Source: Candidatus Altiarchaeota archaeon
GTDB lineage: Archaea; Altiarchaeota; Altiarchaeia; IMC4; SCGC-AAA252-I15
Assembly (NCBI GenBank): GCA_043813075.1
Contig: JBDRLL010000024.1
Location: 1 to 23,422 of the forward strand
Length of the DNA stretch: 23,422 nucleotides
Direction of reading: 5' to 3'
Shown here: piece after piece, positions 4,120-19,592 of the stretch
Layout of the letters: each line of letters opens with the position of its first letter
How positions within the stretch are numbered: position 1 is the stretch's first letter
Notes under the pieces: model-generated
What the model saw: only the letters and a program-made list of their open reading frames with translations
What the model was told of the DNA's origin: nothing
Databases searched by the model: none
Program-made: the position numbers and the translations under genes

Positions 4120-4154
4120 GTATGATATTAAACACCCAAACTAAAAATCCAGGC

Positions 4155-4463: not shown

Positions 4464-4846
4464 CCCACAGTCTTCTCCTTAACCTTCTCTTGGAACTCCG
4501 GAACCCTCTTAAGCTTACCCAACCTCCTCAAACGCGCAAGCTTCAAAAACCTGGCGAAACGCGCGACACGAAAAATCCTGAACACAGGAACCGCAGACAA
4601 CACATCCAACCAATTCCTATACAAAAACACGCGCAAAGGCCCGTTAAAACCCCTCCAAAGGAACCACAAGTCCGCTATAAACACGCACAACGCGGTGATG
4701 TCTATCACATACAGGAAAATCAGCCGACCCTCATCCAACTCATACATGAACTCCAATGAAACCGAGACAACACTAACCACGGCAGCAGTGAAAACAACCA
4801 CATCCCACAGGAGATGCCTCCACGTAATCTGACCCCCATCCCTCAT
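4460..4846 (-). CDS. Stand-alone voltage-sensor-like (ion transporter S1-S4) membrane protein without pore
   Basis: S2 FIAD, S3 NWLDVLSAVP, S4 RIFRVARFARFLKLARLRRLGKLKR. Start ATG 4846 or TTG 4852. Stop overlaps the cupin start (ATGA). Confidence 0.8.
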   Translation of the reverse strand: MRDGGQITWRHLLWDVVVFTAAVVSVVSVSLEFMYELDEGRLIFLYVIDITALCVFIADLWFLWRGFNGPLRVFLYRNWLDVLSAVPVFRIFRVARFARFLKLARLRRLGKLKRVPEFQEKVKEKTVG

Positions 4847-4887
4847 AAACAATCAAAAATTAAACCCCCCGACAGATAAAACAAAAC

Positions 4888-4902
4888 AAAACCTTATAAA
4901 TA
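4888..4902 (+). promoter_or_regulatory. BRE/TATA promoter of the tRNA-Ile2 locus
   Basis: AAAACC-TTATAAATA. Confidence 0.65.
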
Positions 4903-4940
4903 AACCAACCCCATAATATTACCCGAAAACACACAAAAAC

Positions 4941-5062
4941 GGGCCTGTAGCTGAACCTTACCAAGGTTCACGAACGGGCCATCTTCACCTAACGGCTCGA
5001 TGACCCTGAACAACCAAATTCAGGCGAGTAGCAAAAAACAACATACACAAGGGCCTGTAGCT
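4941..5062 (+). mobile_element. Structured non-coding mini-insert flanked by a 12-bp duplication of the tRNA-Ile2 5' end
   Basis: GGGCCTGTAGCT at 4941-4952 and 5051-5062. Internal hairpins TGAACCTT/AAGGTTCA, GGGCCATC/GATGACCC and CCTGAA/TTCAGG. Confidence 0.55.
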
Positions 5063-5125
5063 CAGTTCGGTTAGAGCGCTCGACTCATAATCGAGTGGTC
5101 GTGAGTTCGAGTCTCATCAGGCCCA
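5051..5125 (+). tRNA. tRNA-Ile2 (CAT, agmatidine type); Met elongator less likely
   Basis: Cloverleaf with GGGCCTG/CAGGCCC acceptor, CTCGA-CTCATAA-TCGAG anticodon arm and GTGAG-TTCGAGT-CTCAT T arm. GGGCC acceptor and A73 are typical of archaeal Ile tRNAs. CCA not encoded. Confidence 0.93.
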
Positions 5126-5160
5126 AGTTTTTTTTATCTGATAATTCATATTGATAATCT

Positions 5161-6519
5161 ATGAAATGTATTTTCTACCTAATACTTGTTGTTATACTGT
5201 GTGGTTGCATTAGTTCACTATCTGAAACAACAACCACAACTCAGCCTACTCTGGTCGTCAAGCCAACTATGCCATCTATTGTTACTTCTACGAAGCCAAC
5301 AACCACTAATCCCTCGGTGGAATTTTTCTGTGGGGATGGTATTTGCGATGCAAAGGAGAAGAAACTGGCCAGCTGCCCTCAAGATTGCAAAGAACTTTCT
5401 TGTACAAATGAATGCGGTGACGGGGAATGTGATTATGTCATATGTAAAAAAAATCCCTGTCCTTGTTTAGAGACAAAGAAGAACTGCCCCACTGATTGTG
5501 GACTAGAAGTCGAGCAAAATCCAGTTATCAAAAGTGTTTCTGTTGAAGGAGATCCCATAACTATAAAATCACAGGGGGACTTATGGCTGAACACTTGGGC
5601 AGATGATGATAATATTTACACAAGTTGGGGGGATGGTACTGGTTTTGGAAAAATTGAGACCGATTTTGGTATAGCAAAATTATTTGGCAATCCACCGAAT
5701 TTAGTGGGGGAGAACATATACAATGATCCTTGGCTCCTAGAAGAATGCGATTGCTCACATTGTGAAGAACGAGACAAAGAATGTTTTAAATCCTGTTCTG
5801 GACCCTGTAATGATAAGCCATCTAGCTTATTGTTTATTGATGGTAGGCTCTATGCTTACATTCATTCACCCCTTGGTGATCCAATGGTTGGTTATTTAGC
5901 TTATTCAGATGATTATGGCTTGACTTGGACAAGACTCAAAGATAGTTCCCCTTGGAAAGCATCTGATAAGTATGCAAATGATGGTAAATCTAAAATAGGA
6001 TCAAATTTTAGATGTATGTTTTTTATCAATATGGGCAAAAACTATAATTTGAATACTGATGATTATGTATATGCTTTTGGAATTGGCAGGGAATGGGGCT
6101 GGTATGAAGGTGTATACTTAGCAAGAGTGCCTAAAAACAAAATATTGGATTATTCCTCTTATACATATTTCATGGGGATGCAAAATAATCAACCACAGTG
6201 GTCTTTTCAGGAATCTAATGCACAACCGATTGCAGGTCTAACAACACCCGCCCAATTTTCATCGATATACCATCCAGGCATAAAAAGGTATATTATTCTT
6301 ACAGAAGAAAACCTGTATGAAGCCCTAAATCCCTGGGGGCCATGGACCCTGGCGGGAAGATGGGTGAAAAAAGGATGGCGTGGCTATCAACCCGGAATAA
6401 TCAGCAAAGATACAGGAGACGATTATTTTTGGTTTACAATAGCAGGCCAACCGTCTATAGGACAAGATATAAATTATAATCTAAATATTGGAAAAATAAC
6501 AATGAAACTCCGTGATTAA
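5161..6519 (+). CDS. Secreted lipoprotein: Thr-rich linker, Cys-rich CGDGxC repeats, DUF4185-like beta-propeller/glycosidase-like domain
   Basis: Lipobox-like ILCGC; CGDGICD and CGDGECD repeats; GDLWLNTWADD..YTSWGDGTGF, KPSSLLFIDG.LY, Asp-box AYSDDYGLTW, DDYVYAFG, VYLARVP, YEA.NPWGPW. Confidence 0.75.
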   Translation: MKCIFYLILVVILCGCISSLSETTTTTQPTLVVKPTMPSIVTSTKPTTTNPSVEFFCGDGICDAKEKKLASCPQDCKELSCTNECGDGECDYVICKKNPCPCLETKKNCPTDCGLEVEQNPVIKSVSVEGDPITIKSQGDLWLNTWADDDNIYTSWGDGTGFGKIETDFGIAKLFGNPPNLVGENIYNDPWLLEECDCSHCEERDKECFKSCSGPCNDKPSSLLFIDGRLYAYIHSPLGDPMVGYLAYSDDYGLTWTRLKDSSPWKASDKYANDGKSKIGSNFRCMFFINMGKNYNLNTDDYVYAFGIGREWGWYEGVYLARVPKNKILDYSSYTYFMGMQNNQPQWSFQESNAQPIAGLTTPAQFSSIYHPGIKRYIILTEENLYEALNPWGPWTLAGRWVKKGWRGYQPGIISKDTGDDYFWFTIAGQPSIGQDINYNLNIGKITMKLRD

Positions 6520-6535
6520 GAATAAATGATGGAGA

Positions 6536-6566
6536 TGGTCGTGAGTTCGAATCTCATCAGGCCCAA
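6536..6566 (+). repeat. att-like direct repeat of the tRNA-Ile2 3' end (31 bp, 1 mismatch)
   Basis: TGGTCGTGAGTTCGAaTCTCATCAGGCCCAA versus 5096-5126 TGGTCGTGAGTTCGAgTCTCATCAGGCCCAA. Confidence 0.95.
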
Positions 6567-6586
6567 ATTATTGTGTTTTCGTTTTC

Positions 6587-7072
6587 CTATTTTTTGTCGG
6601 CTTTGAGTATTTCTTTTAGTTTTTGTCTGTGTTTGTTTATGTCTTCTGTGGTTAGTTTTTGTATGTGGTCGTATGTTTTGGCGTTGAAGTTTTCGGCTGT
6701 TTTTATGAGTCGTCTGGCGTCTTCTTTTGTGACCTGGAAGTCTATGTAGTATTGTTTGTCCACGCGCTCCCTTTTCGCTTTCTGGATTTCCGCGTTATCC
6801 AATCCGAATACATCATGGACTATGATTATGGTGGCTGAGTGGTTCTCAGATTTTATGCCTGCCTTGAAGAGGAGGGATAGTGCGGAGTAGTACATGCTGT
6901 AGTATGTCATCGATACTGCTTCCTCTAGCTTGTTATTGTCCAAGAGTATTTTCGACGAGGAGAGGTAGCTCTCTGATTTCTTGAGGTAGGCTTCTTTGAT
7001 TTCGTCGCTTGGTTCCACCATCTGGAGCTTGCCCTCCTCACTGATTTTAGCCAAAAAATCCTGTTTTTTCAT
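6587..7072 (-). CDS. HEPN domain protein (putative toxin)
   Basis: YLKKSESYL.S...LL, YYSMYYSA..LL...GIKSENH, R...QY; overlaps the upstream MNT gene. Confidence 0.85.
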   Translation of the reverse strand: MKKQDFLAKISEEGKLQMVEPSDEIKEAYLKKSESYLSSSKILLDNNKLEEAVSMTYYSMYYSALSLLFKAGIKSENHSATIIIVHDVFGLDNAEIQKAKRERVDKQYYIDFQVTKEDARRLIKTAENFNAKTYDHIQKLTTEDINKHRQKLKEILKADKK

Positions 7073-7592
7073 AGTATCTTTCGACGCCTTTAATTATTAC
7101 GTGGTTTTTCTCAATCTCCCTGGCCAGCAGGTTGTCTTTGTCGTAGTCCCCGATTTTAACGCTTAAGCTGCTGTCCAAATATTCGAGTTCGGTTTTTATC
7201 TTCCTTTTTTTAGTTTCCGCGTATATGTCTATGTCGCTGTCCTTTGTTGCCGTGTTTTTCGCGTAGCTTCCGAACAGGAGTGCCATATTAATCCTCTGGT
7301 CGCACTGTATCCTCTCCACCATCCTTCTTAGGTGGGGGTACCTGTCAAGGACCTTAACGAGCTTGTAGTGTTCGGCCATGAAGATGTAGCCTCTTGTCTC
7401 AACGGTTTTTTTGAGGAAATAGGTCTTGTTTTTGCCTGCCTCATGGAAGTCGACCACGTTAGCCCTTAAGAGTTCTTTGAGTCTGCGGTTGACGGTCATG
7501 TGGTTGGTTTTCATTTTTTTGGCTAACAGCCGGGGGTGGTTCTCCTCCTTCAGGAGGGCGTCAACCAACTCTAGTGTTAAATTCTGTTCCAC
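7047..7592 (-). CDS. wHTH-fused minimal nucleotidyltransferase (MNT, putative antitoxin)
   Basis: N-terminal wHTH (HPRLLAKKMKTNHMTV.RRLKEL...NVV); LFGSYAK....KDSDIDI motif. GTG at 7592 fits TATA spacing better than TTG at 7601. Confidence 0.88.
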   Translation of the reverse strand: MEQNLTLELVDALLKEENHPRLLAKKMKTNHMTVNRRLKELLRANVVDFHEAGKNKTYFLKKTVETRGYIFMAEHYKLVKVLDRYPHLRRMVERIQCDQRINMALLFGSYAKNTATKDSDIDIYAETKKRKIKTELEYLDSSLSVKIGDYDKDNLLAREIEKNHVIIKGVERYYEKTGFFG

Positions 7593-7623
7593 ATGTAACA
7601 AATATGTTACATCATTTATAAAT
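7593..7623 (-). promoter_or_regulatory. TATA box plus palindromic operator of the MNT-HEPN operon
   Basis: TTTATAAA (7623-7616) followed by perfect inverted repeat ATGTAACA-n4-TGTTACAT (7593-7612). Confidence 0.7.
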
Positions 7624-7679
7624 GAAAATTAACAATAATTTATCGTCCAGCCAGGGTGTGGAACTTGGTGGGTGACTGG

Positions 7680-7690
7680 CATCAGGCCCA
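7680..7690 (+). repeat. Third, shorter copy of the tRNA-Ile2 3' end (11 bp)
   Basis: CATCAGGCCCA equals 5115-5125, is intergenic, ends at the discriminator base and is followed by a T-tract. Confidence 0.75.
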
Positions 7691-7738
7691 CTTTTTATCA
7701 TAATCCATCATTGTAAAGTAGTCACCTTAGTAAATCCC

Positions 7739-9106
7739 TTACCCTATGAAGTTTATGTAGCCAATGTTCCTGAGTTTTTCCAGCACGTCCTCGTCGTATT
7801 CCTTGTTGTAGCCTATCCCCCTCTCGTATTCCTCCTTAAGCTTGTTGAATACGTCCGGCTCTTTATCAATCAAGTCCTCCTCCATCCTAGGGTCTTTAGC
7901 CACGTTGTGTAGGGAGCTTTTAGCCTTGTTTTTCCCTATCACCGCGAAGTAGTCGCCTTTTTTTATGGTCTTGCCCTCATAGTATCCCGCGTACTGGATC
8001 CTATCATGCTTCTTCTCTTTCAGCAGGCTCTCCCCCCTAAGATTCAAGTCCACATACACACCGGTTAACTCCATTATCGTCGGCATTATGTCCACGTTCA
8101 TGACAGGATAGTCGAGCACCTTATGCTCTTCGGAAGGGAGTCGCAGTATCAGCGGGGTGTGCAGGCTCTGATAGTCCAACTCATTATGCCCGAACTTGTT
8201 TCTCTCCCCCAGCGTCTGGCCGTGGTCTGTCGAGACTATCAGGATGCTTTTGTCGAGCAGTCCTTTACCCTCAAGATGCCCGACCAGCCTCCCGAACTCC
8301 GCGTCACCATAGTGCACGTTGCTGTCGTATAACGCTATCAACTGCTCTACCATGGATTCAGTCAGGTTCCTCCTGTCATAGTTGAAGTAGTTGTACGTCT
8401 CCACTTTCTCCTCCATAACTCCGGAATAATAATCTAACGCTTTCTGGCCTGACTGACTGTCATTCAAGTCTCTTACCCGTATCCCATAGTCTGTGACGTT
8501 AAAAGAAAAACTAATGGGATACTCCCCCTGCTTGTCATAGAATCCCCTGAACAGGGACTCGTTTTTAACGAATGGGGGGTGGGGTTCCATATAATGCACC
8601 CACAGGAAGAACGGGCCACCATCATGTCCCTCAAGAATACTAATGGCCTTGTCACTGATTTCCGCAGCAGTAGTGTCCTTGCACGTATCATAGATGTCGA
8701 ATCCATTCACTTTCGTGCTGCTCCTCCCCGCGTATTCATTAGCCACTAGCGCGTAGGTGGAGTATCCACTGGCCTTCAGCACCTCAGCAATAGACGTTGA
8801 CTCGAGGTTGTCGACCTGCGGGTATTTTGAGGTCAGGAAGGATGGTGTTGAGGTTATGGTGGACGCTGACTGCGAGAAGGAATTCGTGAACACGAGTGAT
8901 TTCAAGCACAAAGAGTCTATGTTAGGCGAAGTACCCTTCTGATAACCATAACACCCGAGGTGGTCTGGCCTCAACGCGTCAAAAGTGATTAGGATGACGT
9001 TAGCCTTAGGGTACACATTCACGGGTTCCAAAACCGCCTCCTCTCTCGGAGTCACACACCCCCCAGAAAACAGGACTAAAGCCAAGATGAATGCGCAGGC
9101 CTTCAT
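7739..9106 (-). CDS. Secreted sulfatase-like hydrolase/transferase (alkaline phosphatase superfamily)
   Basis: Signal/lipobox; NVILITFDALRPDHLGCYGY, TSPNID, STITSTPSFLTSKYP, PFFLWVHYMEPH.P, STDHGQ, GH, C-terminal LRNIGYI. Confidence 0.9.
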   Translation of the reverse strand: MKACAFILALVLFSGGCVTPREEAVLEPVNVYPKANVILITFDALRPDHLGCYGYQKGTSPNIDSLCLKSLVFTNSFSQSASTITSTPSFLTSKYPQVDNLESTSIAEVLKASGYSTYALVANEYAGRSSTKVNGFDIYDTCKDTTAAEISDKAISILEGHDGGPFFLWVHYMEPHPPFVKNESLFRGFYDKQGEYPISFSFNVTDYGIRVRDLNDSQSGQKALDYYSGVMEEKVETYNYFNYDRRNLTESMVEQLIALYDSNVHYGDAEFGRLVGHLEGKGLLDKSILIVSTDHGQTLGERNKFGHNELDYQSLHTPLILRLPSEEHKVLDYPVMNVDIMPTIMELTGVYVDLNLRGESLLKEKKHDRIQYAGYYEGKTIKKGDYFAVIGKNKAKSSLHNVAKDPRMEEDLIDKEPDVFNKLKEEYERGIGYNKEYDEDVLEKLRNIGYINFIG

Positions 9107-9157
9107 AGGAAAGATTATTCCCTCTGAATGTTATTTAACACAAGCTATTCGCATACT

Positions 9158-9538
9158 CTACTCTTTCTCCTTGAATTCCAGTGCGATAGAGTTTATGCAG
9201 TACCTTTTGCCCGTCGGCTTGGGGCCGTCGTCGAACACGTGGCCTAGGTGTCCCCCGCACTTGCTGCACAATACTTCAGCGCGTTCCATGCCGTGGCTGT
9301 AATCCGTCTCAGTATTAACGGATTCGGTCGAGGCGGTGTCAGTGAAGCTGGGCCATCCTGTCCCAGAATCGTATTTGTCTTCAGAAGTGAAGAGCGCATG
9401 CCCGCAGGCTTTACAGGCGTAGACCCCCCTCCTCTTGTTTTCAACATATTCCCCCGTGAAAGCGGGTTCAGTCCCCTTCTCCCTCAGCACATGGTATTCA
9501 TCGGGGCCTAGTCTCTTCTTCCACAAGTCATTCTTCAC
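9158..9538 (-). CDS. msrB: Peptide-methionine (R)-S-oxide reductase
   Basis: [53 protein letters not shown]. Confidence 0.97.
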
Positions 9539-10734
9539 GTTAGCTCACCTTCCGGGCATCTTCCTTCAGTCCAGAATTCCACTCTCTTGTCAGTGCACGC
9601 GACGCACTCGTTCGAGTAGGTTTCAGCGCACGGGTGTCCACTACACTCGACTTTCTCGGTGTCCAACCACCCGCACACCGGCTTGTACAGCATTATGCAC
9701 CCCACCATCTCCCTGTCCTCTTTCTTGCAGTAATTCTTCTCAGTCTCCCCGCCTTTCCTCCAGCACCCGCAGCCCAGTTCATCCTGGAACTGCTCTTCGC
9801 CACTATCACACCCCAAATCCATTGTACTGCACTTTTCAGGGTCCTGGCTGACATACCTCTTAACAGCCCTAATATCCTTTGGAGTGCAGCATAATGCGGG
9901 TAACGCAAAACCCGCTACCCTACCGGCGTTAACCTCGTTTTCACCGCACTTTCCGTCGTCAGCGAGTTTCACCACGACACCCCCTGATGCATTACACTCA
10001 TCTGGCGTTAGGGTTTTTCCAGTGACTATCCAGTCATCCAGGCTAACGTCAACCCTACTGTCGTCAACACTGAAATGCACTAGGAAGCAGCCCCTGCATT
10101 TCCCGACGTCAACGCCGATAACAGTCAGCCCTGTCTCGAAGCCAACGTACTCGACCGCCTTCCCAGCAGCCTTCCGCTGGTTATCGTTCAGCTCCCACGT
10201 CCTGGTGCACGCGCCCACATCCTCGCTCCAACTGTATCCTGCAGGACCAAGACAACCGTGTTCGTCTTTCTGCCCGCCCACTATCGTGTCGTCCTTCACA
10301 GGTTCTTCGACAACCTCGACATACGTATTGCCTTCAGAATCCCGGCATTGTCTAGGATAGCTTTCCATCACCGGATACCCTTCATCAAGGCATTCCTGGA
10401 AGTTGGACACCGTCTTGCGAGGGTTCCTGCAGTAATACTGGCATTTTCCAGTATCCACATTGTACCTCCATCTTCCAACACATTTATCGTGTGGAGTGTC
10501 CTTATTCTCCCGCACGCAGCAGTCGTCCCTATTCTTGGGGTTCACCGTACCGCAGCTGCCGCCCACGATAGGATTGTCCTGGCTTGCGTTGCCCTTAAAA
10601 ATGCTTATCTCCTCACGCAGTCCAGATAAGGGTACTATCCTACCCATCTCCACTAAAACCAACACTATGAACAACAATACCACTAGTATAACACCCATCC
10701 CCGTCAAAACCTTTCTACCTGCCATATCAACCAT
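9535..10734 (-). CDS. Membrane-anchored modular Cys-rich surface protein with C-terminal Kazal-like domain
   Basis: N-terminal TM; modules NFQEC...[29 protein letters not shown].....C.R.WE, RYVS.DPE.C....C and [10 protein letters not shown]...TYSNEC.AC. Confidence 0.7.
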
Positions 10735-10805
10735 CTATTAGTGATTAAAGGATTCTTATAAAAAGAAATATTGTTTTTCTTCGGTTTAAACCGAATAATA
10801 CCAGT

Positions 10806-10820
10806 GAAAAGCTTTTTAAG
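10806..10820 (+). promoter_or_regulatory. BRE/TATA promoter of L14e-cbf5
   Basis: GAAAAG-CTTTTTAAG about 27 nt before the ATG (leaderless spacing). A divergent TTTTATAA on the minus strand at 10763-10756 likely serves the upstream gene. Confidence 0.6.
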
Positions 10821-10847
10821 CTATGTTACCCATATTTTGTCCACAAG

Positions 10848-11084
10848 ATGGCTATACTCGATGTTGGAAGGGTCTGCAGGATAACTCGTGGTAGACACAC
10901 CCTAGACTACTGTGTAGTGCTTGAGAAAGCCGGTAAAAGCAGTGTGGTAGTCGAGGGATTCGAGACAAAAAGGGGCAAGGTGAATGTAAGTCACGTCGAG
11001 CCGACACCCACCATAGTGGACGTCAAAAAATCATCCAGCAGGGAAGACGTCCTAAAGGCTCTGAACAAGGCAGGCCTAAACTGA
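10848..11084 (+). CDS. rpl14e: 50S ribosomal protein L14e
   Basis: DVGRVC.IT.GR...YCVVL, KR..VN..HVEPT; conserved position upstream of cbf5. Confidence 0.9.
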   Translation: MAILDVGRVCRITRGRHTLDYCVVLEKAGKSSVVVEGFETKRGKVNVSHVEPTPTIVDVKKSSSREDVLKALNKAGLN

Positions 11085-11107
11085 ATCCTCCGTCTGGAAG
11101 TTGGAAT

Positions 11108-12094
11108 ATGTCAAGCAAAGACTCCAAGAAGATACTGGTTAAAAGCGAGGAAGAATCCAATCCTGAATACGGCCGCATCCCTGAGGAAAGGCCCATAGAA
11201 GAGTACATCCGTAAGGGCATAGCAAACATAGACAAGCCTTCAGGCCCCACGTCGCACCAGGTTTCAGCATGGGTTAAAGACATATTCGGGTTCAAGCGGT
11301 CAGGCCACTCTGGAACACTCGACCCGAAGGTTACGGGAGTGCTTCCCGTAGCCCTAGAGGATTCCACAAGAGTCCTACAGGCTCTACTGTTGTCCAGCAA
11401 GGAGTATGTCTGCCTCATGAAGCTACACTCCGACGTTAACTCCAGCGAACTCAAGAAGATGCTCAGCTACTTCCAGGGCGAGCTATACCAGAAGCCGCCA
11501 CTAAAATCCTCTGTGAAGCGCGAACTAAGGAAGAGGACGGTATACTCCATCAAACTACTGGAGAGGGAAGAAGTTAACGTCTTGTTCAGCGTAGAATGCG
11601 AGGCAGGCACATACATACGGAAACTCTGCCACGACATAGGCCTCATGCTCGGCGTGGGAGCCCACATGCAGGAGCTCCGGAGGACGAAGGCAGGGCCGTT
11701 CACTGAAGACACTATCGTAACCCTCCACGACCTGCGTGACGCTTACCAATACTATGTTGAGGATGGCAGCGAGGATAAGCTCCGTCAGGTCGTGCAGCCC
11801 ATGGAGGCTGGCGTACGGCACTTAAAGAGGATATGGGTTAAGGACTCTGCGGTTGACGCGGTATGCCATGGAGCATCCCTTAATTCACCGGGAGTCTCCA
11901 AACTGGAGGAGGACATATCCCCTGGAGAAGTGGTTGCGTTGATGACCCTGAAGCAGGAGCTGATAGCGCTCGCCAAGGCCAAGAAGACTAGCCTAGACAT
12001 TATGGAATCGCCCAAGGGTGAGGTGGCGGCGCCAGGCACCGTCGTAATGAAGACAGACATATACCCCCGCCAATGGCACAGCAAGAACATATGA
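11108..12094 (+). CDS. cbf5: H/ACA RNA-guided pseudouridine synthase Cbf5 (TruB family with PUA domain)
   Basis: IDKPSGPTSHQV, GHSGTLDPKVTG, KEYVCLM, QKPPLKSSVKR, CEAGTYIRKLCHDIG, MQELRR, KDSAVDAVCHGA. Confidence 0.97.
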   Translation: MSSKDSKKILVKSEEESNPEYGRIPEERPIEEYIRKGIANIDKPSGPTSHQVSAWVKDIFGFKRSGHSGTLDPKVTGVLPVALEDSTRVLQALLLSSKEYVCLMKLHSDVNSSELKKMLSYFQGELYQKPPLKSSVKRELRKRTVYSIKLLEREEVNVLFSVECEAGTYIRKLCHDIGLMLGVGAHMQELRRTKAGPFTEDTIVTLHDLRDAYQYYVEDGSEDKLRQVVQPMEAGVRHLKRIWVKDSAVDAVCHGASLNSPGVSKLEEDISPGEVVALMTLKQELIALAKAKKTSLDIMESPKGEVAAPGTVVMKTDIYPRQWHSKNI

Positions 12095-12143
12095 AATATA
12101 TACCATAAAAACACTAGAATATTACCCTAGTAGATTATGTGAT

Positions 12144-12227
12144 GCTGAGGTGGCGGAGCCTGGTAACGCGCAGGACTGCTAATCCTGTTCCCGAAAGGGA
12201 TCTTGGGTTCAAATCCCAACCTCAGCG
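12144..12227 (+). tRNA. tRNA-Ser (GCT)
   Basis: GCTGAGG/CCTCAGC acceptor, CAGGA-CTGCTAA-TCCTG anticodon arm, long variable arm TCCC-GAAA-GGGA, G73. Confidence 0.96.
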
Positions 12228-12228
12228 A

Positions 12229-12279
12229 ACCCTTTTCTTTCTTGTAAGAAAGAAAAGCGTTCACGGAAAAGAAAGAACA
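12229..12279 (+). repeat. Palindromic module Y in the Ser/Ala spacer
   Basis: CTTTTCTTTCT-tgta-AGAAAGAAAAG followed by CGTTCACGGAAAAGAAAGAACA; related copy on the minus strand at 19509-19552. Confidence 0.7.
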
Positions 12280-12283
12280 AAAA

Positions 12284-12391
12284 GGGCTCGTAGATCAGAC
12301 TGGTAGATCGTCCGCTTGGCATCGGATGCGGGAAAAACATCCGCGTCCGACAGAATGCGGGAGGCCTCGGGTTCGAATCCCGACGAGTCCA
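12284..12391 (+). tRNA. tRNA-Ala (GGC) with 34-nt intron at 37/38 (12322-12355)
   Basis: GGGCTCG/CGAGTCC acceptor with G3.U70; TCCGC-TTGGCA|T-GCGGG; intron hairpin CGGATGCGG/CCGCGTCCG in a BHB arrangement. Confidence 0.92.
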
Positions 12392-12413
12392 CTTTGTATA
12401 ACGTCAAAGCGGG

Positions 12414-13568
12414 CTATGCTCTTCTCACCGCTATTATCTGCCCGACGTAGTCTTTTTCAGGCAGGTCTTTTAGGGGCATGAATTCCCCTTCAGGCACCTG
12501 GCTTATCTGAACTGGCTTACCCTTGTCGTTGCGGTATCTGAGCTGAGACCTCACTCTTATATCAAAACCAGATTCCTCAGCCTTCTTGAGTTCAGCCCTT
12601 AGTTTCTTGTCCATCAGGTCTTGCATGTCCCCGGTTTCTAATTGTTTTGGCGGGTCTCCGCCATAAAGGTATCTCAGGTATGTCTCCCTCTCCGGCATCT
12701 TGTCCGCCAGAAGGCAGAAGCTCCCCAAACCCACATAGTCTTCTATCCCAATGTATGCTGCATGCCTCGTTAGGTTCAGCATGTTCCTGACCGCAACGTT
12801 CGGCAGCGGCGAATGCCTCAGCGAATGCTCTGAAATGATGATGTCAACGCCCTGCCTTAATTGTGCTGGAGCGACTTCAGCCCCCATCAGGTGGACTCCA
12901 TCGACTTCACGGTATACGCGGTACCCCAGGTCAGTCATATGAGCTGAGACACTGTCGCCGAGAATATCCTTCATACCCCTGATGACCCTCCCATGCCCGC
13001 CTCCGATATCCCAGAGGCTGACCGGGCGGACACCGTCATATAATCCACCAACCCTACGGCAGACCTCGTCATGCATCCAGTACCTCTCGTTCTCACCGAC
13101 GCTGACATAATCCTCAGTATCCCACGCGTACTTGCTCCTATGCCTGTCAAAGGCTTCAATGTCTGTGACAGCCCTCTCAGCCTCTTCAGGACCTTCCTTC
13201 CCATCAACCCATCTCGCGAATTTAAGCAGGCTCTCACCGTTGCCAAGCAATTGTATCCTCGTGTTGGCTCTCACAACATCCTCCTCATGCGGGGATAATG
13301 GCGTCGCCTTTTCACCAGCCATCATCGACGATACGTCCGCGTCAACTTCGGGCGTGATCGGCTTGTCCCAGCTTCTCCTCCCGTGAATGCAGTCTAGGAT
13401 AGCCTTTCTTACCCTGGATTGGGTTTGCTTCTGGTCGGGTGGGTTATGATGTATCCCCACCTTCTCGTGAATCCTGCCTTCAGGAGGCTTCACAGCGTCC
13501 CCGCCGCCAGACTCGCTTATCATGATAGATACTCTAGGAACACCAGGCTTATATGCTGGGTCTACCAT
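12414..13568 (-). CDS. Hypothetical protein with class I SAM-dependent methyltransferase-like domain
   Basis: SLWDIGGGHGR motif I, AHMTDL, VDIIISEHSLRH; long unassigned N-terminus; start uncertain. Confidence 0.6.
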   Translation of the reverse strand: MVDPAYKPGVPRVSIMISESGGGDAVKPPEGRIHEKVGIHHNPPDQKQTQSRVRKAILDCIHGRRSWDKPITPEVDADVSSMMAGEKATPLSPHEEDVVRANTRIQLLGNGESLLKFARWVDGKEGPEEAERAVTDIEAFDRHRSKYAWDTEDYVSVGENERYWMHDEVCRRVGGLYDGVRPVSLWDIGGGHGRVIRGMKDILGDSVSAHMTDLGYRVYREVDGVHLMGAEVAPAQLRQGVDIIISEHSLRHSPLPNVAVRNMLNLTRHAAYIGIEDYVGLGSFCLLADKMPERETYLRYLYGGDPPKQLETGDMQDLMDKKLRAELKKAEESGFDIRVRSQLRYRNDKGKPVQISQVPEGEFMPLKDLPEKDYVGQIIAVRRA

Positions 13569-14496
13569 GCCCTATGACCCTCGGGGTTTTCTGGCCTGGT
13601 TCGAGAAAAACAATCCTCTCTTGTGTTAACGGCATCTTCTTCTCCAAGGCAAGCCTCACCCTCCCAGACCCCCCTGGCTTGACGCAACCCTCAGTAACCC
13701 TTGCTGGAACGTAATTGAGGTAGGAATTAGCCATAAAAACGTCTCCCACACAAATATCTCGCGAATAGTACTTGGACAATGTGAAGTCCACTAGAATCTC
13801 CTCAACGCACTCGACAGAATCCTCTAGTGCGAGCACGCTACCCCTCTCCACATCCTCCGGACCCACATCCTTCAGCGCCAGGCCTATCCTCAAGCCGGAA
13901 GCCGCCTCGCTAACGTCTGTGTCGTGCACTTGCATTGACTTAACGTACGCCACCCCGCCCAAAGGGTATATGCTGAGCTCATCATACTTCCTTACAGTGC
14001 CCTGTTTGACGACACCCAACGCTACTGTCCCAACACCCTTGACTGTGAATGAATGGTCCACCTGGACTATGACGTCACCCTGCCTATCAGTCCTGTTCGA
14101 CGCCACCCACTCCCGAAGGCCGACAACATGCCCCTCCAGTAGGGGGTATGATGAGATGCTGGTGTCCTTGATGAATTCGCTGACCGCGTCAGAGTCCACA
14201 CCCTCCCCAATAACAAGCCCTCCAGCAGCCGTGCCGTAGGCATCCAATGCCACTACTGTTTCGGCAAAATACCTGTCCAGCTGCGATACGTTGAAGATAA
14301 CCTGCTCGCCTATGTTCAGACTTGATGTTAATGGCTGTATCTTCTCCGGATACGATGAGGGCTCCACAAATGACAGTACAGTATCCCCCACCTTGTTGTT
14401 GTATAACGTGATGTCGCTGACAGTACCCTTCCTGCCGAGCGAGGGGGCGAGGCCTCCGCCACCCACCACTGCCGCGATTGTGCCGTTGAAAGACAT
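13549..14496 (-). CDS. Archaeal SelB-like protein (degenerate G domain plus EF-Tu domain II/III)
   Basis: LGRKGTVSDITLYN, YPEKIQPL, VDHSFTVKGVGTVALG, VKSMQVHD, RIGLALK, VERG; no GxxxxGKT P-loop. Confidence 0.85.
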   Translation of the reverse strand: MSFNGTIAAVVGGGGLAPSLGRKGTVSDITLYNNKVGDTVLSFVEPSSYPEKIQPLTSSLNIGEQVIFNVSQLDRYFAETVVALDAYGTAAGGLVIGEGVDSDAVSEFIKDTSISSYPLLEGHVVGLREWVASNRTDRQGDVIVQVDHSFTVKGVGTVALGVVKQGTVRKYDELSIYPLGGVAYVKSMQVHDTDVSEAASGLRIGLALKDVGPEDVERGSVLALEDSVECVEEILVDFTLSKYYSRDICVGDVFMANSYLNYVPARVTEGCVKPGGSGRVRLALEKKMPLTQERIVFLEPGQKTPRVIGHGRPSI

Positions 14497-14533
14497 GTTG
14501 TATTGATGGTGGAATGCTATAATAAATCCCTGC

Positions 14534-14977
14534 TTATTCCCCTATGTCCTCGTTCCAGAGTCCCGGGTTCTCATCTATGAACTTTCTCATCATCTCCACG
14601 CACTCCTCCTCGTTCAGGACTTCGACCTCAACACCCCGGCCCCTAACGTATTCCTCAGGCCCCTTGAAATTCACGTTCTCGCCCACGACTATCCTCGGTA
14701 TCCCGTAAAGCAATACCGCTCCACTGCACATGTCGCAGGGAGAGAGGGTGGAATACAGTACCGACCTTCCGTATACGCTCGCCTTCTGCCTGCCGGCGTT
14801 CTCCAGGCAATCCATCTCAGCATGCTTGATCACACTACCCTCCTGCACCCTCCTGTTATGCCCCCTCCCAATGATCCTCCCGTCAACCACCAAGACGCTG
14901 CCTATGGGTATGCCCCCCTCATCCAGTCCCTTCCGCGCTTCATCGAGCGCTGCCTCCATGTACTCATCCATCATCAC
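14534..14977 (-). CDS. Cytosine/nucleoside deaminase (Fcy1-like)
   Basis: EGGIPIGSVLV, GHNRRVQ, HAE, SPCDMC zinc motif, C-terminal WNEDIGE. Confidence 0.92.
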   Translation of the reverse strand: MMMDEYMEAALDEARKGLDEGGIPIGSVLVVDGRIIGRGHNRRVQEGSVIKHAEMDCLENAGRQKASVYGRSVLYSTLSPCDMCSGAVLLYGIPRIVVGENVNFKGPEEYVRGRGVEVEVLNEEECVEMMRKFIDENPGLWNEDIGE

Positions 14978-16590
14978 GCCTCCTCTACAACTATCGCCCC
15001 CGGGAATGTGAAGGCCAGCTTCAGGTTCTCCGCGAAATCATGCTTGTTGTACGCCTTCTTCTCTATGATCATTATCCTATCCAGGTTCTTAACCACCCAC
15101 CTGGGGGCCCTGTTCTCGATGACCGCTTTCAGGAACATGCCCTCGTAGATGTCGTCACCTGAAGCGCGTTTTATCTCAGTTATCTGCTGGGCGTAGGAGC
15201 CTAAGTCCCTGTGTCCCGGCCTTGGCGTCTGGACTTTCATGCGGGCGAGGAACGGGTCTGTCAGCCCAAACCACTGGACCAGCCTTATGTCGAATTTAAT
15301 GTAGTACTCCAGGCAGTATAGTGAAGTGTCCGTCCAACTGTACCTGAATTCCGGGAATTTTCTCTGGTACTCGATCATCTTTCTGTGCGGCTGCAGGATG
15401 AAGAATGTTTCCTCATACAAGTGTTTCAGCCTCCTGAAGTTGTTAGCGTCATCAACGCTCTTGTATATCACCCCGTTAACGCCGTCCACATACGCTGGGT
15501 GTTTGTCTAATATATGTGACGGGTAATACGTGAAAGATGTTGCCAGTATCAGCACGCCGATCAATGAGACTATCCTCTCATCCAGTTGCGGGAGGAGGTT
15601 TTCACGCGTCTTCTCAAGTATCCCCGAGAACGCGCATGCCGAGAGTATGAACGGGAAGGAAAGCATCCTGAAGTGCATGTAGTCACCCCCTATCTTCACG
15701 ATATACAACATTACCGCTAGTGAGGTCACGAGCATCATAACGCGCGCCCTCAATTCCACGTCAATGTTCCTCCTCGCAAGCAAGACAGTCAGGATAGCGA
15801 ATGCCGCGAAAACAGTCAAGAAGTGATAGGTGCTTAGCGTGTCGAACAAGTACGTCATCCCCTGGGTTGGGTTGTCCTCATTCTTCAGGTAGAATATGTT
15901 CGGGAACAAGTCCGCGTAATACCATATCCTGAACGTAAGCCACATGCCGTTGAAGACAAGTATCATCAACAACAGCCTCACCGGAACCCTCCTCTCACGT
16001 ATCCCACCCCATATGGCGCACAAAACCATTGGCAACGCCAGCTCAGGCCTTATGAGCGGAGACAACGCTATTACCGCCTGCATGAGCGCTGAGGAAGGAT
16101 TTAATATGTATAACGCATACGCTGCCGCCGCAACCTGTACGAGAGGGCTTTCAAGCCCTGACGAGAAATAGCTTAAGACCCCGTAGTTCACGGCAAGATA
16201 TGCGAGAGGAAAATTGACTACACCACCCTCCGGAGACATCCTCCTGTTGACCTTCACTATAATCAACGCGAATCCGATAAAGCAGGCGTAAGCCATCCAC
16301 TCCACAATATACCAATAGCTGACGTGGAAATACCTGAACACCGTCAGCATGACCACCCAGAGCGGGCTCGTGAACCCCTCAACAAACTCCCCGTAATTAT
16401 ACACCAACCCGATCTTCAGGAAAAGCAGGTTGTCCACATACCTGTAGTATATCCCACAGTCATCAAGGAACCAGAGATACCTGTACGTGAGGAACAGCCC
16501 GGCTATGATGTAAACCCATTCAACCGGCTTAGGCTTGATAATGCCCCCGCCATCATCACACACCCTCCGTGACACATCCTCCTTAGTCAT
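14974..16590 (-). CDS. GT-C fold membrane glycosyltransferase, AftB (arabinofuranosyltransferase)-like
   Basis: DD..IYYRYVDN...G.VYN.GE.VEGFTSPLW, SGLESPL, RPE, R.WYY.DLFPN.FY.K, GGDYM.FR, GLTDP.LAR, RPGH. Confidence 0.75.
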   Translation of the reverse strand: MTKEDVSRRVCDDGGGIIKPKPVEWVYIIAGLFLTYRYLWFLDDCGIYYRYVDNLLFLKIGLVYNYGEFVEGFTSPLWVVMLTVFRYFHVSYWYIVEWMAYACFIGFALIIVKVNRRMSPEGGVVNFPLAYLAVNYGVLSYFSSGLESPLVQVAAAAYALYILNPSSALMQAVIALSPLIRPELALPMVLCAIWGGIRERRVPVRLLLMILVFNGMWLTFRIWYYADLFPNIFYLKNEDNPTQGMTYLFDTLSTYHFLTVFAAFAILTVLLARRNIDVELRARVMMLVTSLAVMLYIVKIGGDYMHFRMLSFPFILSACAFSGILEKTRENLLPQLDERIVSLIGVLILATSFTYYPSHILDKHPAYVDGVNGVIYKSVDDANNFRRLKHLYEETFFILQPHRKMIEYQRKFPEFRYSWTDTSLYCLEYYIKFDIRLVQWFGLTDPFLARMKVQTPRPGHRDLGSYAQQITEIKRASGDDIYEGMFLKAVIENRAPRWVVKNLDRIMIIEKKAYNKHDFAENLKLAFTFPGAIVVEEA

Positions 16591-16705
16591 GCCCCACTAG
16601 ACCCGCATAAAATAGTTAATTAAGATGAGATTACTACTCTAATAATCCCCTACAACCAAAACATCATTTATATTAAAAACAAGCGAATTATAATCCTACA
16701 ATCCT

Positions 16706-16827
16706 GGGGCCGTGGGTTAGCTTGGCCATACTTCCAGCTCGGGGCTTCGTTAAGCGGGAGGACCCAATAATCCCTCTAGCAGTGAAACGGAGAGCTGGCG
16801 ACCTGAGTTCGAATCTCAGCGGCCCCA
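16706..16827 (+). tRNA. tRNA-Pro (GGG) with 48-nt intron at 37/38 (16745-16792) and C33
   Basis: GGGGCCG/CGGCCCC acceptor; CCAGC-TCGGGG|A-GCTGG; CGAC variable loop; CTGAG-TTCGAAT-CTCAG T arm; TATA TTTATATT at 16667. Confidence 0.88.
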
Positions 16828-16885
16828 AACCACCTAGACACTCCGGTAACCACAAACTGATTATCAGCCTGCTAAAAGAATAAAG

Positions 16886-17407
16886 ATGATGCCCGAACGG
16901 CTTGTGATAATCCAAGGCGACATAACTGTCCAGCGAGTCGACGCGATAGTGAACGCCGCCAACAACACACTACTCGGCGGAGGCGGGGTTGACGGCGCAA
17001 TACACCGTGCGGCAGGCCCGGAACTGCTGGAAGAATGCCGTAAACTAGGCGGCTGCGAGACAGGGGAAGCCAAGATAACCAGCGGATATAAACTACCCTC
17101 AAGATGCGTCATACATACCGTCGGCCCAGTATGGCATGGGGGAGGGCATGGTGAAGATGGTCTGCTGGCTGAATGCTACCATAATAGCCTCGACTTGGCG
17201 TCACAACACAACCTGTCTTCCATAGCGTTCCCGTCAATCAGCACTGGCGCCTACGGATTCCCCGTCGGCAGGGCCTCTAGGATTGCAGTCCGCGAGATAC
17301 TGGATTTCCTACGCCAACATGACACTCCCCGCCAGGTATTCATAGTGTGTTTTGACGTTGAAACACGCAGGCAATACTCTACAGCACTCAGGGAAGCCTT
17401 GTTTTAA
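16886..17407 (+). CDS. Macrodomain O-acetyl-ADP-ribose deacetylase (YmdB-like)
   Basis: [52 protein letters not shown]. Confidence 0.95.
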
Positions 17408-17429
17408 CTGTTTTTTACGGATTCTTCTA

Positions 17430-19310
17430 ATGAATAACATGCCTGGAGACGCGGATGAAGACTTGAGGAACCTGCGCAAAAAATTCTTCCCCAACCTGCC
17501 TGACAAAGACGGTGGAGAACCCCGCGAGACCGCGTCAAAAGACGTGCAGGAGCCTGATGAAGGGCCTGCCAAATCACCTGCAAGCGGAACCCCCCCAGAG
17601 GATCGTTCTCTTAAGCCTACCCGCGTCATAGGGGAGGAAAGAGCTAATGAGCCTACCACACCCCCACGTCCTGAAGCGCCAGTGAACGGAATACGGCAGC
17701 CAACATCACCCTACCCTGAGGGGATATCCTCCATAGCACAGGAACTAGGGATTCCTGAGAGAAGACCTGTCAGAACCCAGCCGCCAATGCCTCCAAGCAC
17801 TGAAGCCTCAGTGAATCCGGAGTATGACGCACCCCAGCGAGAGCAGGTTAGGCCAGCTCCACAGGAACAACCGGCAAAACAGCCTTATTCCCCAATACCC
17901 CAGGAAACTCAACCTCCATCTCACCCAATCCCGCAGGAAACTCAACCTCCATCTCCTCCCGCTTATTCGCCAGTCCCCTCGAAGGAGCCTCCAACACAAA
18001 CACCATCCAAGCCCGCGCCTACCGCAAAACAAGATTCCCCACCCGACCAGAAGGTGGAGGATGAGATAGAGCGTTTAAGGAGGAAATACAATCTAGGCTC
18101 CAGCGAACCAGGAGACTCCGGCAAAGAAAAGCCTACCGGAGCACTAACATGGAGTGCGCCAGAAGAGCCAAAGGCTGAAAAATCCATGGAAGAAGCCAAG
18201 TCCGGGGGAAGAAAGATTCCAGTCAAGATAATACTCATACTCGTCGTCTTAGCCGCGGTAGTCGGGGCGGCATACTACGTCCTAGTGATGTCCCCTCCAG
18301 AGGAGAAGCTATACCAGTGCCCGACCGGCGAGTTCATGGCCAACCTAAGCGCATGCCCGCCAATAGAGACCACGACGACGACAGAAACAACGACACTACC
18401 CCCAACGACACTACCCCCCTTCATATTCACCACTTCAACGACAACCACACTGCTGGTCATAAACTGCACGATAAACGATGACTGCAGTAACAAGGAGGCT
18501 GAACGCTTATTCTGCGAGGACCGGTTCGTCAAGACCTCGTACGTGACCTACCTCTGCATGAAGCCTGGCACGCCAGAATCCTACTGTGTGGCAAAAGCGA
18601 AGACGCCACGCCTTGTGAAGAAGTGCGGTGACAAGGAATACTGCCTGGACGGGGAATGCTACAGCGAAAAATGCAGGAACAACATGCTCGACGAGGGAGA
18701 GGAGAAAGTCGACTGTGGCGGAGTATGCAGGGAATGCGGTCCAGAAGACACCGCATGCAACAACAACAAGGAATGCGGTGAAGACGACTGCGGCAACTAC
18801 CACTGTAAGGACGGCGACGTATACATGCACTGCACCAGGAACATCTGCATTAACCCCGGCAAACCCAACGCCGAATGCAAGACCGAAGAAAAGGTAGAGC
18901 TCAACGACAAATGCGGTTTCGCTGAAGTATGCATAGAAGGCCAGGACGACTGCATATCAGGCCACGGCGCCAAAGCCAACTGCCACGACTGCATCAGGAA
19001 CCAGGGGGAGGAGGGCATAGACTGCGGCGGACCATGCCCCAAATGCGCCATACGCCCTCAAATGGCGGTAGACACGATGAACCTCACATCACTCGACACA
19101 TTCGAGTACGAGCTCTACAAACTGAAGTTATTGCGTGTGACCGTAGAGGAGACGTGCGCCAACGAAGCGAAGATAATGATAGTAAGCCCAGACGGACCCT
19201 GGAGGAACACGCAAGTAAGCTACCATGAAAACACTGAAGTATACGGCCTACAAGTCGGCCTAGTGCGGGCGGAACCCAGCTACGCGATAGTATGGCTCTA
19301 TAAGCCCTAA
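17430..19310 (+). CDS. Type II membrane protein: Pro-rich disordered cytoplasmic N-terminus, TM helix, Thr linker, Cys-rich extracellular repeats
   Basis: TM IILILVVLAAVVGAAYYVLV; two C.[ND]...[DN].GEE..DCGG.C..C units and two duplicated Cys modules. ATG 17430 or 17439 is preferred over the overlapping TTG 17352. Confidence 0.75.
   Translation: MNNMPGDADEDLRNLRKKFFPNLPDKDGGEPRETASKDVQEPDEGPAKSPASGTPPEDRSLKPTRVIGEERANEPTTPPRPEAPVNGIRQPTSPYPEGISSIAQELGIPERRPVRTQPPMPPSTEASVNPEYDAPQREQVRPAPQEQPAKQPYSPIPQETQPPSHPIPQETQPPSPPAYSPVPSKEPPTQTPSKPAPTAKQDSPPDQKVEDEIERLRRKYNLGSSEPGDSGKEKPTGALTWSAPEEPKAEKSMEEAKSGGRKIPVKIILILVVLAAVVGAAYYVLVMSPPEEKLYQCPTGEFMANLSACPPIETTTTTETTTLPPTTLPPFIFTTSTTTTLLVINCTINDDCSNKEAERLFCEDRFVKTSYVTYLCMKPGTPESYCVAKAKTPRLVKKCGDKEYCLDGECYSEKCRNNMLDEGEEKVDCGGVCRECGPEDTACNNNKECGEDDCGNYHCKDGDVYMHCTRNICINPGKPNAECKTEEKVELNDKCGFAEVCIEGQDDCISGHGAKANCHDCIRNQGEEGIDCGGPCPKCAIRPQMAVDTMNLTSLDTFEYELYKLKLLRVTVEETCANEAKIMIVSPDGPWRNTQVSYHENTEVYGLQVGLVRAEPSYAIVWLYKP
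17891..17955 (+). repeat. 33-bp intragenic tandem duplication (PIPQETQPPS x2)
   Basis: CCCAATaCCcCAGGAAACTCAACCTCCATCTC at 17891 and CCCAATcCCgCAGGAAACTCAACCTCCATCTC at 17924. Confidence 0.85.
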
Positions 19311-19362
19311 AGACAAATTTATATTCCATTAAACCACTAATAATAGAGTTCTAAAAACATTC

Positions 19363-19436
19363 GCCTCAGTAGCTCAGTTGGCCGGAGCGACCGACTTGTA
19401 ATCGGTAGGTCGGGGGTTCAAATCCCTCCTGGGGCT
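19363..19436 (+). tRNA. tRNA-Thr (TGT)
   Basis: GCCTCAG/CTGGGGC acceptor, ACCGA-CTTGTAA-TCGGT anticodon arm, T73; TATA TTTATATT at 19318. Confidence 0.96.
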
Positions 19437-19576
19437 AACGGCTCACTCCGTTAACACGTGGGAGCCATCTTCGCTAACGCTCGATGCCTCAGCATGTTAC
19501 ATCAAATCTGTTCTCTTTCCGTGCACGCTTTCTTTTTTTGAAAAGAAAGGGTGCTTTAAACACCTCCTGGGGCTAA
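19425..19576 (+). mobile_element. Structured non-coding mini-insert flanked by a 14-bp duplication of the tRNA-Thr 3' end
   Basis: CCTCCTGGGGCTAA at 19425-19438 and 19563-19576; contains hairpin module X (19462-19490) and inverted module Y (19509-19552). Confidence 0.65.
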
Positions 19577-19592
19577 GTCTAGTCCTAAAGGT

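Follow-up and report, generated by a model that had tools for sequence, protein, structure and literature searches.

A covarying hairpin module recurs beside tRNA genes, in tRNA introns and at other gene ends within one archaeal order

The window analysed here is the complete 23,422-nt contig JBDRLL010000024.1 of a Candidatus Altiarchaeota archaeon, contig C24 of a genome (G000) that comprises 1.8 Mb in 41 contigs and is 89% complete. Besides further archaeal housekeeping genes it encodes Cbf5 with a PUA domain and a DEAD-box helicase, and it carries a tRNA-Met gene (5051-5125) and a tRNA-Thr gene (19363-19436), both placed by ARAGORN and Rfam. Close to each of these two genes stands one copy of a short imperfect hairpin, called X in the following, which is preceded by a second hairpin (H1) and enclosed by a duplication of one end of the tRNA gene. 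X is a real, structured repeat family that is conserved across one archaeal order. The features of the two sites, A at tRNA-Met and B at tRNA-Thr, are as follows.

Site A, 4926-4952, plus strand: upstream duplication copy, 12 nt identical to the start of tRNA-Met (4941-4952) and 15 nt of imperfect leader
Site A, 4952-4970, plus strand: H1 of copy A, a perfect hairpin of 8 bp with a 3-nt loop that abuts the duplicated tRNA end; H1-type hairpins precede X in relatives
Site A, 4976-5006, minus strand (the better-folding one): X, copy A; covariance model 49.6 bits, E 1.9e-9
Site A, 5005-5024, plus strand: H3, a third hairpin (6 bp) whose start overlaps the end of X; in several relatives, too, a similar hairpin comes after X
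Site A, 5025-5050, plus strand: A-rich, leader-like tail reaching the intact tRNA-Met
Site A, 5051-5125, plus strand: intact tRNA-Met (CAT), 73.1 bits; its first 12 nt are the second duplication copy
Site B, 19363-19438, plus strand: intact tRNA-Thr (TGT) and 2 nt; the final 14 nt (19425-19438) are the first duplication copy
Site B, 19437-19452, plus strand: H1 of copy B, 5 bp with a 6-nt loop, a second H1 type whose loop is conserved in other copies
Site B, 19462-19490, minus strand: X, copy B; 39 bits, E 1.2e-6
Site B, 19514-19554, plus strand: module Y, in which a T/A-rich hairpin with a run of seven T comes after a conserved 13-mer; terminator-like in this orientation
Site B, 19550-19576, plus strand: downstream partial 3' end of tRNA-Thr, exact over 14 nt (19563-19576) and imperfect before

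Both modules lie inside duplications of a tRNA end, as a first-pass annotation made from the sequence alone had already noticed. At site A the exact part of the duplication is 12 nt long (4941-4952 equals 5051-5062) and belongs to an extended repeat of 27 nt (4926-4952 and 5036-5062) with 78% identity; a TATA-like box stands about 45 nt upstream of the duplication copy. At site B the exact part consists of the last 12 nt of tRNA-Thr and 2 further nt, and the extended repeat, again of 27 nt (19412-19438 and 19550-19576), shows 81% identity. Insert A is 98 nt and insert B 124 nt long; both are non-coding, and the former starts with the perfect hairpin H1 followed by X, the latter with the hairpin 19437-19452. 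Direct repeats of the tRNA end on both sides of an insert, next to an intact tRNA, are the arrangement of an attachment site, and no integrase gene is found inside either bounded segment. Copies A and B are situated outside complete tRNAs and not between exons: the tRNA-Met at site A is intronless, and no bulge-helix-bulge (BHB) motif was seen by eye at the borders of copy A.

X copy A consists of an 8-bp outer stem, a conserved internal loop that reads GA/GAA on the minus strand and TTC/TC on the plus strand, and a short variable hairpin on top. Comparison of the two copies bore out the details of the earlier description, including the positions of both: a G-C pair of the outer stem is exchanged for A-T, a mismatch occupies the same stem position (C.A in A, C.C in B), the TAAC loop is common to both, the inner stem is one pair shorter in B, and an unrelated hairpin and CACG stand ahead of X in each. 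The X core is also the best local alignment between the two inserts (22 identities in 25 columns with two 1-nt gaps, score 33), it begins at offset 25 in either insert, and its score was reached by only 1 of 3000 dinucleotide-preserving shuffles (mean 16.3, sd 2.5). The decisive control for this match is the family, over whose copies the proposed pairs hold.

A DNA search with insert A against 40 relatives returned clear partial matches spanning the first hairpin and X. In 25 copies, which were gathered by a loose motif without a stem constraint and aligned with MAFFT, 86.5% of the paired cells are complementary in the plus and 93.1% in the minus orientation, against 15-40% and 27-56%, respectively, when the stem partners are slid; the covariation score was attained by none of 500 shuffles in either orientation. 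A covariance model (R1) was built on the minus orientation, and in this way the scan of the genome and its relatives that the first-pass annotation had proposed could be performed. In G000 it found at least 12 matches, with 150 of 887 candidates scored, and a 13th with filters off over the tRNA neighbourhoods. Across the order there are at least 150 matches in 36 of 49 genomes, the highest counts being 25 (G019), 24 (G008) and 15 (G015), all within one genus. Aligned to the model, 51 distinct copies show 95.0% of cells paired, a figure that leans towards the structure since the alignment was fitted to it and that is best read beside the 93.1% of the MAFFT alignment; both sides of the pair have changed in 8 of the 11 pairs (71 cells), slid controls reach 27-58%, and again 0 of 500 shuffles attain the covariation score. 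The earlier proposal of a repeated family whose structure is under selection is supported. The unpaired letters of the internal loop (GA and GAA on the minus strand) are nearly invariant, and the apical hairpin varies freely in length and sequence with its pairing kept. We compared the GA/GAA loop by eye with the consensus motifs of K-turn, H/ACA, C/D box, sarcin-ricin and hammerhead RNAs, and none of them fits.

Only tRNAs reach the Rfam gathering score in the window, and for 4935-5055 at a relaxed threshold the best match (E 6.6) is unrelated. A pattern scan of genome contigs gave, among the matches listed, five that were inspected (passers of a 3-bp inner-stem check together with three archaeal matches): four appear chance-like within coding sequence and one is a true copy (L089, identical to L002). 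A full-text search of the literature, confined to articles without their supplements, found no description of a covarying hairpin module common to tRNA introns and duplicated tRNA flanks. The family of modules of about 90 bases therefore appears, from these sequence and literature comparisons, to be undescribed.

The strand antisense to tRNA folds better. RNA parameters make the minus orientation the more stable one for 50 of the 51 copies (-17.1 kcal/mol on average, compared with -11.0 for the plus orientation), and DNA parameters do so for 48, which agrees with the strand singled out earlier; the minus orientation runs antisense to the tRNA in 11 of the 13 G000 copies. Over the 51 copies, G.U cells number 62 on the minus and 8 on the plus strand, or 23 and 8 when the dominant column is excluded, counts that may be biased by a model built on the minus orientation. 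The dominant position holds U.G on the minus strand (C.A on the plus strand) in 39 of 51 copies, C-G in 6 and U-A in 3. The invariant internal loop is rich in purines on the minus strand and consists of pyrimidines only on the sense strand. An internal contrast is provided by the BHB helices of the introns, which, by eye, use sense-strand G.U pairs, as expected of a structure in sense RNA.

Each of the 13 copies in G000 belongs to a different tRNA gene and lies in that gene or no more than 100 nt from it. ARAGORN predicts 34 tRNA genes when introns up to 400 nt are allowed, and their neighbourhoods so defined cover, by our own calculation, about 0.6% of the genome. The association with tRNA genes that had been suggested from two copies is therefore upheld, usually together with the bounding gene-end duplications. 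Five copies are anticodon-loop introns and show no duplication. Two stand upstream of the tRNA, after a partial copy of its 5' portion, namely A with its 12-nt repeat and C10:1009 with a repeat of 19 nt and one mismatch. Four, including B, follow the tRNA directly on its 3' side in the sense orientation, X beginning 24-25 nt past the tRNA end, and the remaining two are inverted on the 3' side and are the lowest-scoring of the 3'-side copies. In three of the intronic copies the borders display, by eye, the canonical succession of helix, 3-nt bulge, 4-bp helix, 3-nt bulge and helix, and a fourth does so partly; in those three the inner helix of the BHB is formed by pairing between the 5' arm of H1 and the intron's 3' end. 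In G019, 14 of about 25 copies were placed at tRNAs by eye, and the others stand behind protein genes, behind 23S rRNA (inverted) or between genes. Taken together, the module is seen in three settings: as inserts at tRNA ends with a duplication, as canonical tRNA introns and, in relatives, at the ends of protein and rRNA genes.

A separate observation concerns L006 (G022:C152), where X (1513-1550) lies about 115 nt past the 3' end of 23S rRNA and the strongly folding strand enters the rRNA transcript.

Introns of 19-171 nt are present in 21 of the 34 tRNA genes of G000 according to ARAGORN, and only 20 tRNA genes are recovered by the tRNA model of Infernal (20 vs 34). This has a consequence for annotation, in that tRNA genes with long introns escape the Infernal model in this genome. 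The window itself contains a tRNA with a 48-nt intron (16705-16828) that was missed by plain ARAGORN and by the Rfam gathering score and was found only by ARAGORN with introns allowed.

The unit has a fixed order, given here in the orientation of copy A: a duplicated segment, H1 after a gap of 0-3 nt, a spacer of 6-10 nt, X, a variable tail and the second duplicated segment. The H1-X unit spans about 70-100 nt, often includes a third hairpin, and employs at least three sequence types of H1. Most non-intronic copies are flanked by duplications of 12-50 nt, with one copy of the gene intact. Seventeen duplication-flanked inserts measured by eye range from 58 to 190 nt, 12 of them falling between 78 and 104 nt. 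The duplicated segment runs either from the 5' end of a tRNA to the D-loop region, in some cases together with leader sequence, or from the T-arm to the 3' end, and once it comprises the last 16 codons and the stop of a protein gene. These units do not resemble miniature inverted-repeat transposable elements, in that the duplications extend from 12 to about 50 nt and one end is H1 and the other variable, no systematic search for terminal inverted repeats having been made.

The module is present or absent at orthologous sites of relatives. In G001, a member of the same genus, the tRNA-Met and tRNA-Thr genes have homologous upstream genes (49-65% amino-acid identity) and neither X nor a duplication; its tRNA-Met has instead an intron with a Y-type module, and an integrase gene just downstream and repeats of the tRNA end also lie downstream. 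In G019 and G008, which belong to another genus, an identical 71-nt X-H1 insert separates two copies of the last ~50 nt (16 codons) of one protein gene, the end of which is undisturbed in G017 and G015. The two copies of this gene end differ mostly at synonymous positions (5 of 9 differences in G019, 5 of 7 in G008), a bias that is not significant against drift (P about 0.1-0.3 by our own rough binomial estimate). The contigs of four DNA runs over 3500-20500 are short fragments, none of which bridges either insert, and they are mute on empty sites.

These characteristics encourage us to ask what kind of element X belongs to. The simplest and best explanation, to which we give about even odds, is that X forms the conserved centre of a small DNA module, rich in hairpins and non-coding, which behaves as a non-autonomous mobile insertion distinct from REP (repetitive extragenic palindromic) elements and their RAYT (REP-associated tyrosine transposase) enzymes. 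Such a module would land at conserved gene ends, above all those of tRNA genes, with a duplication of 12-50 nt of that end, so that one intact copy survives. It could enter as a small circular or linear DNA bearing a copy of the target end, by recombination of the attachment-site type or through short homology, catalysed in trans, and X would then serve as a cis-acting structure that is read on one DNA strand or in antisense RNA. Survival may be confined to places where the insertion is harmless, that is, leaders and trailers with a duplicated gene end, and spliced introns: copy A, which sits in the leader ahead of tRNA-Met, and copy B, in the trailer behind tRNA-Thr, would be removed by ordinary end processing, and in other tRNAs, where the module lies at position 37/38, it would be spliced out as a canonical BHB intron. 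The duplications resembling attachment sites and one integrase-bearing relative point to recombination in trans.

This relative is G019, in which a segment of 3.4 kb beside tRNA-Lys (L175, G019:C43, 3850-7447) contains a tyrosine integrase gene (6470-7363, minus strand; PF00589, E 1.1e-19) and two further genes without a significant Pfam family. A copy of the tRNA 3' end stands at each limit of the segment, and a diverged unit of H1, X and terminator comes after either copy; on the 5' side of the same tRNA-Lys there is a further X insert, flanked by a 23-nt duplication. This leaves two readings: H1-X is carried by integrative elements beside their attachment site, or such elements have copied the native trailer of the tRNA. 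The nine regions around Y1 transposase genes that we fetched yielded no X (best 8.1 bits, E 2.8, filters off).

A number of observations weigh against a mobile DNA module. First, none of the enzymes searched (Y1_Tnp, TnpB, reverse transcriptase and integrase) is co-distributed with X, bearing in mind that G000 is 89% complete. Tyrosine integrase (PF00589) has 0 matches in G000 and is matched in 10 of the 20 other family genomes and 30 of the 49 genomes of the order; Y1 transposase (PF01797) has 0 matches in G000 and occurs in 4 of 21 family genomes; TnpB (PF07282) has none above the cut-off in G000 and occurs in 2 of 21; reverse transcriptase (PF00078) has 0 matches in G000 and occurs in 1 of 21. 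G008 carries 24 copies of X and yet none of the four enzymes, and of the element-type integrase matches, which score low and number about 20, only two or three have an X copy within 1 kb according to the coordinates as read. Likewise, 97 stretches of viral contigs matched the X pattern, and of the 29 that passed the inner-stem filter none looks like X by eye and none has H1 or a non-coding context. Second, the duplications vary from 12 to about 50 nt, unlike those of a transposase with a fixed stagger, the intronic copies lack a duplication, so that no single insertion mechanism covers all settings, and many of the fillers found between tRNA-end duplications are unrelated to X, so that the duplication process may not depend on it. 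Third, two intronic copies in tRNA-Asp are orthologous across genera and hence old, possibly kept for a function. Finally, the strand argument leans largely on the one conserved U.G pair (39 of 51), which could go back to a single ancestral event, and the fact that 11 of the 13 G000 copies put the weaker-folding strand into the tRNA transcript fits a role at the DNA level without proving it.

A bolder version of the mobile reading, to which we give tentative and clearly less than even credence, takes H1-X for the DNA-level mobile form of archaeal tRNA introns, a structure-specific, non-autonomous hairpin of the antisense strand that would enter the loops of tRNA genes. In the anticodon loop it would become a BHB intron, and in the D- or T-loop it would survive only with a duplicated gene end. 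If this were true, it would offer a direct and testable route of tRNA intron gain, by a class of enzyme not yet linked to tRNA introns.

Alternatively, X could be an RNA module that rides on tRNA transcription units and is freed by RNase P, by the splicing endonuclease (as a circle) or by tRNase Z, its function being that of a small RNA or of a processing element in cis; integrative elements that copy tRNA ends with their flanks would then have left the duplications as by-products. We consider this unlikely, in spite of several features that speak in its favour. The 11 of 13 copies just mentioned lie sense to the tRNA, and all copies are in parts that are cut off by processing; the 5' arm of H1 forms, by eye, the inner BHB helix in three introns; the copy in the tRNA-Asp intron is shared by different genera, its 23-nt H1 being identical and the changes in its X compensated; and both borders of the G019 element hold the tRNA 3' end with H1-X, as if a native trailer had been copied. 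However, the sense strand is the poorer folder in all but one of the 51 copies, has a C.A mismatch where the antisense strand has U.G, and presents an internal loop of pyrimidines only. Furthermore, both orientations are found behind rRNA and protein genes, and the module is missing at the orthologous tRNAs of the congener G001.

It is also conceivable, albeit improbable in our view, that there is no dedicated mobility at all and that duplications and fillers are template-switching scars of replication or repair at tRNA genes, for instance from microhomology-mediated copying of intron sequence, X being simply a common intron sequence. Of the 34 tRNA genes of G000, 12 are accompanied by a partial duplicate of one of their ends no more than 300 nt away (16-nt probe, at most two mismatches), whereas about 0.4 would be expected by chance for all 34 genes over the whole 24 kb searched around each, by our own estimate. 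The fillers are diverse, that of tRNA-Arg(CCT) on the 5' side being about 75% alike to the gene's own intron by eye; at tRNA-Val(TAC), perfect duplications (about 44-45 nt) are present on either side and extend beyond the gene; and, as stated, no enzyme searched tracks the family. On the other hand, the tRNA-Met of site A offers no intron as a source, the identical 71-nt insert in a protein gene of two genomes has no source nearby, and H1 is always at one junction. The conservation of X over the order with up to 25 copies per genome points to master copies and not to local scars.

The interpretation offered in the first-pass annotation, a hairpin of the REP type acting as single-stranded DNA and moved in trans by a Y1/HUH transposase (RAYT, or TnpA of IS200/IS605), is largely refuted and now seems highly improbable. 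X is an imperfect palindrome of which one strand folds better, also with DNA parameters, and Y1_Tnp has 9 matches in G019, whose 25 copies of X are the most of any genome, and 2 in G015, which has 15 copies. Against this, the 4 of 21 family genomes with Y1_Tnp include neither G000 (12-13 copies) nor G008 (24), the nine Y1 regions are devoid of X and have unrelated end hairpins, and X inserts are flanked by duplications of 12-50 nt. Insertion of IS200/IS605 and REP elements is not known to leave a target duplication. The earlier interpretation as a whole is partly supported: the family and its link to tRNA ends stand, and what had gone unmentioned are the intron copies (5 of 13), the protein and rRNA gene ends and the other hairpin fillers. 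An ordinary terminator or a chance palindrome is refuted by the family data, since X lacks a T-run of its own, is also found within introns and ahead of tRNAs, and keeps its loop nucleotides invariant and its stems covarying over more than 50 copies, even though copy B is followed by the T-run hairpin of module Y and T-runs come after several 3' copies.

The Y1 elements of G019 and G015 (L273-L280) are IS200-like elements of about 600 nt, each with a Y1 transposase and GC-rich end hairpins of its own that are unrelated in sequence to X; G019 has the 9 matches given above.

Three other types of filler deserve description. Filler Y consists of the conserved 13-mer and the T/A-rich hairpin; it recurs in relatives and is also found inside tRNA introns, mostly inverted. 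Filler Z is a module of two hairpins located in the T-loop of displaced tRNA copies, and filler X2, which represents a second, X-like family, is present in tRNA-Arg(CCT) both as the 5' filler and in the intron. In the window, an inverted Y-type module (12229-12278) lies between tRNA-Ser (12143-12228) and an intron-bearing tRNA (12284-12391). The 3' end of tRNA-Met recurs within 5126-7696, at 6536-6572 (92% of 37 nt) and at 7680-7696, and these repeats bound two cassette-like segments without an integrase, one with a gene for a DUF4185 protein (5161-6519) and the other with a pair of HEPN and nucleotidyltransferase genes (6587-7601, minus strand). A stretch within the 3' end of cbf5 (12019-12041) shows 83% identity over 23 nt to the 5' end of tRNA-Ser 127 nt downstream, which is probably due to chance.

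The origin of archaeal tRNA introns and of tRNA gene fragments is an old question, and here one covarying module is found in three states within one lineage. A 2026 preprint on Asgard tRNA introns (10.64898/2026.10.13.758758) describes the route by which introns arrive as still open. The three states of the module, together with the filled and empty orthologous sites, make the question concrete: one can ask for the strand that is read, for the enzyme that moves the module and for the existence of free circles.

Several known systems share some of these features. Like REP/RAYT elements and the ends of IS200/IS605, X is a short imperfect palindrome that is repeated in the genome and folds in a strand-specific manner; unlike REP/RAYT, it has no associated Y1 gene that we could find, it is linked to gene ends with long duplications, and it does not exceed 25 copies. 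Folded single-strand recombination sites, such as attC of integrons and attP of CTX phage, are composed of a stem, an unpaired centre and a variable terminal hairpin, their structure is kept over their sequence, and one strand is preferred. X has the same architecture, and in one relative a tyrosine integrase adjoins it; unlike attC, the X consensus lacks the conserved core motifs of attC, cassette arrays are absent, and most of the genomes with X yielded no integrase match. Integrase-less remnants and cis-mobilisable elements likewise leave a segment between repeats of a tRNA end, with an intact tRNA and no integrase inside. Variation in size and content is expected of remnants, whereas the inserts described here are mostly 78-104 nt long with H1-X at one junction. 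In Thermoproteales, Fujishima et al. in 2010 (Mol Biol Evol) reportedly found similar introns in unrelated tRNA genes, implying movement of introns; those introns are said to be short, with many at non-canonical positions that need a BHB, and neither duplication-flanked forms nor a covarying hairpin are said to have been reported for them. The likeness lies in related intron sequence in different tRNA genes of one order.

The closest parallel that we found is in Caldiarchaeum subterraneum, where a 5' fragment of tRNA-Thr forms a direct repeat upstream of the intact gene and the 1868-bp insert encodes a putative recombinase (Sugahara et al. 2012, PMC3293823); its authors propose integration at attachment sites to explain both tRNA fragments and intron gain. 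Both cases share a direct repeat of a tRNA fragment that encloses a repeated, apparently mobile insert. In Caldiarchaeum, however, a single tRNA locus is concerned and no shared structured module of RNA or DNA is reported, whereas the inserts reported here are 60-190 nt long and non-coding, possess a covarying hairpin, and occur at many tRNAs as well as in canonical introns.

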